The notes below the pieces were generated by a model that was given only the letters and a program-made list of their open reading frames with translations, made no database searches and was not told the DNA's origin. A DNA stretch of 17,970 nucleotides, from UHGV virus genome UHGV-0122840. One strand, given 5' to 3'. The stretch comes from a virus. Below, in pieces: positions 4,262 to 4,800 of this stretch (the stretch's first letter is position 1; each line of letters starts with the position of its first letter). Position numbers and translations under genes: made by a program.

Positions 4262-4290
4262 AAAATAAAGGCCGATTATGCGGCCTGAAA
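4262..4290 (-). terminator. Intrinsic terminator downstream of the 149-aa membrane protein gene
   Basis: Reverse complement reads AGGCCGCATAATCGGCCTTTATTTTTGG, a GC stem followed by a U-run, directly after the stop at 4291. Confidence 0.5.
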
Positions 4291-4740
4291 TTACTTAACC
4301 AATGATGCTGCATATTCGATAAGGTAAAGCTTTGGGGCCAGCCAAATTTTTAACCAAGTCATATTGGTTACTACACCAATAATAAAAATCCCCCACAGAG
4401 TCAAAACTCCAACCAATGGCATGATAAGAAGATTAATATCACCTTTGCTATCCCAAACCATTGTCGGCCTGTATTTGGGATTTCCTTTCTCCCATGAATA
4501 TCCTTCATCACCGATTTTACCTGTCTCAACTCTTTGGCACTGCTTCTTCATAAACCAGAAAACCAGTGGGATTGTTAGAATGGCCATTAATGTTTTAATC
4601 AGACTGTCAACCATATTCCATAGCAGCAACTGATGAACAACATCAGGAATCTGTGCCTGGCTAAATGAAACAGCCGCGTCTATTCCATTACTGGCTTTTT
4701 GCAGTAGTTCTACGAGAATCTTGTTTGCTTGTTCTTCCAT
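4291..4740 (-). CDS. Inner-membrane protein of unknown function (149 aa, at least two long hydrophobic helices); candidate superinfection-exclusion or moron product
   Basis: ORF track. AAGGTGA Shine-Dalgarno. Hydrophobic stretches LIKTLMAILTIPLVFWFM and INLLIMPLVGVLTLWGIFIIGVV. Bracketed by two hairpin-plus-U-run elements that share the tail GGCCTTTATTTTTG. Confidence 0.7.
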   Translation of the reverse strand: MEEQANKILVELLQKASNGIDAAVSFSQAQIPDVVHQLLLWNMVDSLIKTLMAILTIPLVFWFMKKQCQRVETGKIGDEGYSWEKGNPKYRPTMVWDSKGDINLLIMPLVGVLTLWGIFIIGVVTNMTWLKIWLAPKLYLIEYAASLVK

Positions 4741-4764
4741 ATATCACCTTGATTGTAATAAGCA

Positions 4765-4800
4765 TGAAATTATTTACGGACAAAAATAAAGGCCACCATC
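4765..4800 (-). terminator. Putative terminator or attenuator overlapping the ral stop codon
   Basis: Reverse complement reads AAGGCTGCCTGATGGTGGCCTTTATTTTTG, with stem AAGGC / GCCUU and a U-run. Confidence 0.4.

Follow-up and report, generated by a model that had tools for sequence, protein, structure and literature searches.

Among described systems, the closest to the locus reported here are gene 34 of phage Sf6, a member of protein family PHROG 3054, and the cluster of terminators that lambda carries in its early-left (PL) operon together with the small RNA (sRNA) PreS/LPR1. Here we describe positions 4262-4800 of a 17,970-nucleotide (nt) stretch of the UHGV virus genome UHGV-0122840, referred to below as the window. 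This interval holds the gene for a 149-amino-acid (aa) predicted inner-membrane protein, flanked on both sides by a hairpin with a U-run. The window corresponds to the part of a lambdoid prophage that holds the immunity and early-left genes; its PL operon is on the minus strand. The interval is probably a promoter-less accessory cassette of that operon, consisting of a ribosome-binding site (RBS), a 149-codon open reading frame (ORF) and its own predicted intrinsic terminator, expressed from PL with the help of the antiterminator N, joined to its surroundings at terminator tails and encoding a membrane product.

The cassette shares with Sf6 gene 34 its family, its position beside ral and its placement upstream of the tL2A/'bsq4' region, but has a different central core allele and encodes 149 aa, compared with 140 aa in Sf6. 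It has the operon, the strand and the hairpin-plus-U-run elements between ral and cIII in common with the lambda PL cluster. However, neither flanking hairpin is tL2a: one is an unnamed post-ral hairpin that lambda also has, and the other is absent from lambda. Morons are genes flanked by a promoter and a terminator, such as HK97 gp15 (PMC3029335). Like lambdoid morons, the gene described here is a single accessory gene that is present or absent, has its own terminator-like hairpin and occurs in several slots, and its guanine-plus-cytosine (GC) content is slightly low against the arm, though less so against ral and the PreS spacer; unlike morons, it has no detectable promoter of its own in the window and none that travels with it, and would instead depend on read-through from PL. 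Short conserved boundary sequences at lambdoid mosaic junctions are credited in PMC3029335 to Clark et al. 2001 (HK620) and Susskind & Botstein 1978. As cited there and as annotated in the bsq features of Sf6, they resemble the terminator tail plus linker at the 3' end of the cassette and the RBS at its 5' end, and differ in that the 3' boundary here coincides with a functional-looking terminator. Finally, SieB of lambda and P22, T4 Imm, P22 SieA and HK97 gp15 are likewise small phage inner-membrane proteins, and SieB is encoded in the same arm, but the 149-aa protein has no detectable sequence or profile similarity to any of them, and its gene no detectable prophage promoter. Taken as a whole, the cassette is an ordinary mosaic arrangement, an instance of the terminator-rich lambda PL arm and of cassette exchange at boundary sequences. 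The locus itself matters little, being one more accessory cassette in a mosaic arm; it shows terminator tails and RBS regions as joints for the independent gain and loss of single genes around the PreS sRNA.

The hairpins flanking the gene

We derived the gene order by scanning PHROG profiles and by aligning the window to lambda, phage 21 and Sf6. From ral to cIII, in the direction of transcription, the features are as follows.

4799-4999, minus strand: ral (restriction alleviation), 66 aa, upstream of the cassette (phrog_1055, E 1.7e-49)
4781-4810 (stem 4789-4810), minus strand: ral hairpin and tail UAUUUUUG, overlapping the ral stop codon
4741-4780, minus strand: 40-nt leader, with the Shine-Dalgarno sequence AAGGTGA 5 nt before the ATG, read from the sequence
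4291-4740, minus strand: gene for the 149-aa predicted inner-membrane protein with two transmembrane (TM) segments, PHROG 3054 / Sf6 gp34 family
4260-4286 (stem 4269-4286), minus strand: cassette hairpin and tail, terminator-like
4247-4259, minus strand: linker GCATAAACAACAG, in common with the sequence 3' of the ral hairpin in lambda
about 4118-4206, minus strand: LPR1/PreS sRNA homologue, its 3' end being the tL2a hairpin at 4124-4141 and its 5' end approximate, placed by the size of the lambda sRNA
4084-4103, minus strand: a further terminator-like hairpin just upstream of cIII
3914-4054, minus strand: cIII, 46 aa by translation, with an RNA thermoregulator at its 5' end

On the minus strand, the upstream hairpin (4810-4789) reads AAGGCTGCC-TGAT-GGTGGCCTT, followed by TATTTTTG, and the downstream hairpin (4286-4269) reads AGGCCG-CATAAT-CGGCCT, followed by TTATTTTTG. 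Both are GC-rich stem-loops with a U-run on the transcribed strand, and both are unidirectional, the plus strand lacking a T-run. RNA folding gave -13.9 kcal/mol for the ral hairpin (z -3.7 against shuffles) and -9.7 kcal/mol for the cassette hairpin (z -2.3). Both elements end in the same 14-mer, GGCCTTTATTTTTG, with copies at 4781-4794 and 4260-4273 on the minus strand; the exact 14-mer occurs at these two sites only in the window. With up to two mismatches allowed, it has 4 matches against 0.28 expected, a number reached in 0 of 200 shuffles. Past the 14-mer the similarity continues imperfectly as GGC(CG/A)TAAA(T/C)AA, and the linker that follows the 149-aa gene, GGCATAAAYAACAG, has a similar counterpart after ral in lambda.

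An earlier, sequence-only reading of this DNA had described the two elements as near-identical hairpins ending in one tail. The tail is indeed identical, but the stems differ: the hairpins are two different predicted terminators with the tail alone in common. The downstream limit of that reading, 4262, also cuts two bases from the downstream tail, whose copy begins at 4260. The upstream hairpin appears to be ral's own, since the same element occurs once in lambda, directly 3' of ral and with no gene after it, and the downstream hairpin appears to travel with the 149-aa gene. The surrounding region is rich in such structures, with 9 terminator-like sites between 3000 and 6600 against 3.7 +/- 1.9 expected, four of them on the transcribed strand within 730 nt (4810, 4286, 4141 and 4103).

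A further element elsewhere in the window resembles the shared tail. At 12116-12157, at the end of ORF 11513-12124, a bidirectional-terminator-like structure, AAAAAAAGATAAAGGCCTGC-TGGTAAT-GCAGGCCTTTTTATTTG, has arms that match GGCCTTTATTTTTG with 2 mismatches.

Junctions with lambda and with other loci

Comparison with lambda and phage 21 by BLAST and MAFFT resolves the region into three collinear blocks. The first (window 4770-5130) comprises ral together with the hairpin overlapping the ral stop codon, with ral 96-97% identical at the nucleotide level to the ral genes of lambda and phage 21. The second (4114-4273) corresponds to the 160-nt spacer between ral and ea10 in lambda, at 96.9% identity, and the third (3819-4113) to the cIII leader, cIII and kil. 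The lambda junction reads ...GGTGGCCTTTATTTTTG|GCATAAATAACAGAATAAACACTG..., with a single copy of the tail and no gene, while the window has the tail twice, 521 nt apart from start to start, the second copy continuing into GCATAAACAACAGAATAAACACTG. The breakpoint between lambda and the window thus falls exactly at the end of the 14-mer, and, compared with lambda and phage 21, the 149-aa gene is an insertion/deletion polymorphism. The extra DNA would represent either an insertion here or a deletion in lambda, located exactly where the ral terminator tail ends. This alignment bears out the proposed position between ral and cIII and puts the junction precisely at the repeated hairpin tail.

The cassette had also been placed where lambda carries ea10 (DUF2528), and this part of the claim fails. 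The cassette does not take the place of ea10, because it follows the ral terminator directly and the ral-ea10 spacer with PreS and tL2a is kept downstream of it. In the window ea10 is precisely absent at about 4113-4126: the tL2a hairpin GCCCTCCAGTGTGAGGGC is joined within about 11 nt to CATACCAATAACG, and the missing gene would fall between this hairpin and the one that precedes cIII. Lambda ea10 is likewise bounded by hairpin and T-run elements. The two genes appear to be independent cassettes in adjacent slots, since the prophage of O55:H7 CB9615 carries cIII, ea10, an ORF of the 149-aa type and ral together.

The spacer downstream of the cassette appears to be a homologue of the Hfq-dependent lambda sRNA LPR1/PreS with tL2a, at 97% identity. 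In lambda, LPR1 lies between ea10 and ral, has tL2a as its 3' end and is reported to be about 88 nt long; it is expressed only in the lytic cycle and is conserved in lambdoid phages (10.1101/2024.10.31.621285). An Rfam scan returned only the cIII thermoregulator (RF01804 Lambda_thermo at 4009-4067, 88.5 bits, at the 5' end of cIII), and PreS has no Rfam family. At the homologous place, the GenBank record of Sf6 annotates tL2A and a 113-bp 'bsq4 boundary sequence' (2508-2620 of Sf6 locus L001). This sequence overlaps the stretch homologous to the spacer, and the conserved 'linker' is therefore probably an sRNA gene, whose conservation may be functional and not purely recombinational.

The boundaries of the cassette were followed in two IMG/VR samples, 80 loci with close relatives of the gene (74-100% identity) and 80 loci encoding Ral. 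Because each sample consists of the best 80 hits and includes many near-identical prophages, the counts illustrate a pattern and not frequencies. Of 76 ral loci, 44 have an empty slot behind the ral hairpin, as lambda does; 8 carry a PHROG 3054 gene there and 24 carry something else. On the other side, a hairpin-tail-linker AGGCCGCATAGTCGGCCTTTATTTTTGGCATAAACAACAG stands 3' of the stop codon in nearly all of the 80 gene loci, and under strict terminator criteria a hairpin lies no more than 70 nt downstream of the gene in 67 of them, whatever comes next. The downstream contexts split right after ...GGCATAAACAACAG (...AACAG), leading either into the PreS spacer or into the Shine-Dalgarno sequence of other genes, and the linker is therefore the 3' boundary. 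Upstream the picture is different: of 79 loci, 31 show a hairpin of the ral type and 6 a hairpin of another kind, while the remaining 42 lack one. Upstream sequences of at least six unrelated kinds come together only about 20 nt ahead of the start, at TTATTTGAGGTGATAT-ATG, and conservation among these differing contexts is limited to the RBS of about 20 nt. Many copies abut an N-type coding sequence, for example in phage HF4s. No sigma-70-like promoter was found by a consensus scan of 4741-4810, which includes the 40-nt leader. The mobile unit would accordingly comprise RBS, ORF and terminator, without a promoter. The description of the interval as a self-contained unit is not supported in this light, the upstream hairpin being ral's and the upstream end of the unit being marked by the RBS.

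The common tail and linker occur 3' of both ral-type and gp34-type hairpins at dozens of loci. As with boundary sequences, tail and linker are common to different modules and breakpoints lie at their edge. The gene also occupies other slots, directly after N in HF4s, beside sieB in phage Oslo and between Rz and Nu1 in PhiR46_1, and in the myophage Vibrio phage 511E55-1 it runs antisense within the structural module and is accompanied by a bidirectional terminator. In these last two phages the PHROG 3054 gene can be an independent unit. The GC content of the cassette is 39.6%, compared with 45.8% for the arm, 42.3% for ral and 41.1% for the PreS spacer.

A repeat of the 5' boundary type was also seen within the window. 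The 28-aa ORF at 4983-5069, which resembles lambda orf28, and the 149-aa ORF (positions 4738-4753 at its start) have a 21-nt RBS/start region in common that is 90% identical, reading TTTGAGGTGAGATATGGAAGAAGAA at the orf28-like ORF. The motif TTTRAGGTGAKATATG occurs at these two sites only in the window and also precedes other PL-arm genes in related loci.

Two explanations of the shared tail dispense with exchange at boundary sequences. If the tail reflected a convergence of intrinsic terminators, of no evolutionary or mechanistic meaning, differing stems would be unsurprising, U-rich tails being functionally required, and the nearby hairpins at 4141 and 4103 do have tails other than GGCCTTTATTTTTG. 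We consider this very unlikely, since the exact 14-mer is confined to two sites in 18 kb, the lambda breakpoint coincides with its end, and the linker as well is common to ral and cassette terminators. Still more improbable, to the point that we rejected it, is the idea that the gene was inserted by a transposon-like or site-specific event and that the 14-mer is the resulting target-site duplication. The extra DNA is indeed bracketed by an exact direct repeat of 14 nt where lambda has a single copy; however, no transposase, integrase, inverted repeat or homing endonuclease was found in or next to the 521-nt unit, the repeat belongs to two functional-looking terminators with different stems and its similarity runs past 14 nt, and the upstream junctions of the gene in other phages are entirely different. 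Recombination between cassettes at short boundary sequences remains the preferred account. The tail and linker would form one such sequence, where homologous recombination could add, delete or swap cassettes, and the RBS/start region would form a second common boundary. The recombinases may be those of the host or phage enzymes of the Red/Sak4 type, such as lambda Red or the Sak4-type annealase encoded in the window.

The membrane protein and its family

The ORF at 4291-4740 translates without interruption, and a Kyte-Doolittle scan finds exactly two hydrophobic segments, at residues ~43-64 and ~102-126, in agreement with the two hydrophobic helices first proposed. Among the collections searched, which included Pfam (E <= 1), NCBIfam and PADLOC, only phrog_3054 matched the protein (E 4.2e-64, residues 1-149 against 1-137 of a 137-position profile), and its identity to Sf6 gp34 is 50-51%. 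The family comprises 1,865 clusters at 50% identity (E <= 1e-3), and 178 phage records carry a relative. Its hosts include P22-like and lambda-like temperate phages as well as virulent N4-like, phi92-like, Vibrio and Pseudomonas phages, and a Ralstonia jumbo phage has three copies. The gene usually lies among small early genes, and no constant partner was found in a neighbourhood survey of virulent phages and metagenomic contigs.

With a 601-nt query and a minimum coverage of 80%, the allele in the window turned up in 112 of 5,426 complete E. coli genomes. Near-identical genes (97-98%) are deposited in phages HF4s and Stx2_EH2086, and phage Gally has 98%-identical DNA across most of the interval. 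The gene belongs to a catalogued family without characterisation and holds nothing surprising to a specialist. Relatives and clusters are called nothing more specific than 'hypothetical', 'phage transmembrane protein' or 'Gene 34 protein', and the literature on phrog_3054 and on Sf6 gp34 or gene 34 yielded nothing on function. Pfam searches with 149 relatives gave scattered sub-threshold noise from TM proteins, and a profile search of PDB sequences gave noise from the TM segments of G-protein-coupled receptors (E > 0.5). An AlphaFold2 model built from 40 sequences was discarded at a mean predicted local distance difference test (pLDDT) score of 66; the model used, built from 149 sequences, has pLDDT 80 and is all-helical. 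Foldseek returned 0 hits against the PDB and only uncharacterised proteins against BFVD, the top two of which (26-32% identity, probability >= 0.99) look like family members.

Conservation is unevenly distributed along the protein. Residues 1-42 and 128-149 are nearly invariant in aligned enterobacterial relatives and are also the best conserved parts in homologues from Vibrio and phi92-like phages, while the TM1-loop-TM2 core varies in sequence and in length, giving proteins of 120-150 aa. In the alignments, conserved motifs flank the TM helices, namely F26, P32 and QLLxW on the N-terminal side and IAPKLYLIEYAAxL on the C-terminal side. Selection on the termini and the core was compared by Nei-Gojobori counts of nonsynonymous and synonymous change (dN/dS). 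For the termini, whose helices are thus under strong purifying selection, the ratio falls within 0.02-0.13 in most comparisons, the N-terminus against relative L078 being an exception at 0.41; for the core it is mostly 0.35-0.45, with 0.21 in the case of the most divergent relative. A non-coding or spurious ORF is ruled out by these values. In L075, L076 and PhiR46_1 the core is recent (dS 0.09 for L075/L076 and 0.39 for PhiR46_1) and the termini are saturated (dS > 1.2). Against Sf6 the reverse applies, with 92-98% identity in the terminal codons and flanks and a core (codons ~42-128) that cannot be aligned at the DNA level. Since termini and core diverge in opposite ways, the gene, which is real and under selection, appears to be an intragenic mosaic formed by recombination at its conserved ends.

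The two TM segments also allow a topology to be predicted. Lysine and arginine (K/R) residues flanking them average 3.87 on the loop side against 1.48 on the side of the termini, the loop being higher in 287 proteins and lower in 6, and this excess predicts a cytoplasmic K/R-rich loop and periplasmic termini.

In phage HK633 (locus L009, 2191-2866), two separately annotated ORFs, gp43 and gp42, appear to be parts of the family gene, suggestive of a frameshift or a pseudogene.

Expression, exclusion and neighbouring genes

Upstream of ral lie the elements on which expression of the cassette would depend, and beyond cIII a set of further genes.

7009-7656: cI-like repressor, by PHROG scan and alignment
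5907-7012, minus strand: two overlapping genes of no known function, 206 aa (phrog_5820) and 162 aa (phrog_5893)
between these genes and the nutL motifs: PL/operator region
about 5495-5545: nutL-like motifs, boxA-like GCTCTTTAAACAA and boxB-like GGCTGAAAAGCC, read directly and putatively assigned
5128-5472, minus strand: N-like antiterminator (phrog_271, E 4.5e-25)
4983-5069, minus strand: the acidic 28-aa ORF that resembles lambda orf28
beyond cIII, reading leftward: a small ORF, then Sak4 and SSB

Because the gene has no detectable promoter of its own and stands behind a predicted terminator, with N and nutL further upstream, we infer that it depends on PL and N. Polymerase starting at PL and modified by N at nutL would read through the ral hairpin, and the 149-aa gene would be delayed-early, like ral and cIII, and silent in the repressed prophage. 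The product may serve as a stand-alone envelope-acting accessory factor in lytic growth, with immunity to secondary infection as one candidate role and another form of membrane-level takeover or counter-defence as a second.

Several points weigh against the interpretation as a promoter-less, PL-dependent cassette. None of the lambda, phage 21 and Sf6 records consulted marks either hairpin as a terminator, and the cassette hairpin shows no covariation, the relatives being too close and their variants mostly weakening the stem instead of compensating. A weak or non-sigma-70 promoter could be present in the 40-nt leader or inside ral and would escape a consensus scan. The IMG/VR counts are not independent of one another. 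The topology comes from the positive-inside rule only, and short-loop alleles have few loop charges. Finally, no finding bears directly on the biochemical function of the protein.

A rival model, developed from the sequence-only reading, sees here a self-contained moron that brings its own promoter and terminator along with the gene, is active in the repressed prophage and encodes an inner-membrane superinfection-exclusion factor of the SieB, Imm or Cor type. The moron-like label fits in that the gene is present or absent between lambda neighbours, has its own predicted 3' terminator, encodes a small membrane protein, is slightly lower in GC than the arm, if less so than ral and the PreS spacer, and, in PhiR46_1 and Vibrio phage 511E55-1, has homologues at positions typical of morons; it does not fit in that no promoter-like site was found, the RBS alone is conserved upstream, many copies abut coding sequence such as N, and the upstream hairpin is ral's. 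Searches gave no support to the proposed exclusion role. Comparison with Oslo SieB by hhalign gave a probability of 0.24%, a scan of 149 relatives likewise lacks SieB among its 25 most frequently matched Pfam families, and models of T4 Imm, Cor, RexB and other exclusion or defence proteins in Pfam, PHROG and PADLOC did not match. The family is also common in strictly virulent phages, which never form lysogens. A prophage-expressed exclusion role is unlikely because no promoter was found and the family is abundant in such phages, and the complete moron model is, in our judgement, decidedly unlikely. An exclusion function of the protein as such is neither supported nor excluded by these comparisons. 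One form of it would keep the cassette dependent on PL and have an early lytic protein block the entry of a secondary genome at the inner membrane or periplasm, in the manner of Imm. T4 Imm is a small early membrane protein as well, and the PHROG 3054 gene lies among early genes in temperate and virulent phages, stands alone without a constant partner, encodes a two-TM protein whose conserved module is predicted to be periplasmic, and shows the high mobility and mosaicism that are common among genes used in competition. However, no similarity in sequence or fold to known exclusion proteins was found, and the variable part is the TM and cytoplasmic core, where dN/dS of about 0.4 points to relaxed and not positive selection. 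The part predicted to face the periplasm, where an arms race would be expected, is the most conserved. A conserved periplasmic part with a relaxed core is not the pattern predicted by an arms race with incoming phages, and Imm-like immunity remains a doubtful, though not negligible, possibility.

A broader proposal would make PHROG 3054 a widespread class of early inner-membrane effectors in phages of Proteobacteria, in which an invariant periplasmic three-helix module acts on a conserved envelope target and a swappable TM and cytoplasmic core tunes specificity, with superinfection immunity or the neutralising of a membrane-acting host defence as the outcome. We regard this as speculative and rather improbable. 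The family is large, has members in temperate as well as virulent phages, lacks a Pfam entry and shows an unusual selection pattern, and is a reasonable candidate for a functional screen.

A holin or antiholin was considered and rejected: here the gene is part of the early-left operon, elsewhere it is found with early genes, and the C-terminus of its product is amphipathic and hydrophobic. In locus L177, the family gene is outside the holin-endolysin-Rz block and convergent to it.

The two genes at 5907-7012 stand directly downstream of the cI-like repressor, in the position of lambda rexAB, and a strong predicted terminator follows at 5900-5879. They gave no match in PADLOC and no significant match in Pfam. 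These genes are candidates for prophage-expressed cargo, and would be a better place than the 149-aa gene to seek exclusion expressed in a lysogen.

At the other end of the region, a 79-aa ORF at 3808-4047 on the minus strand overlaps cIII almost fully in another frame, and its translation matches phrog_2461, labelled 'Kil'. It may be an overlapping kil-type gene, or phrog_2461 may include mis-framed annotations.

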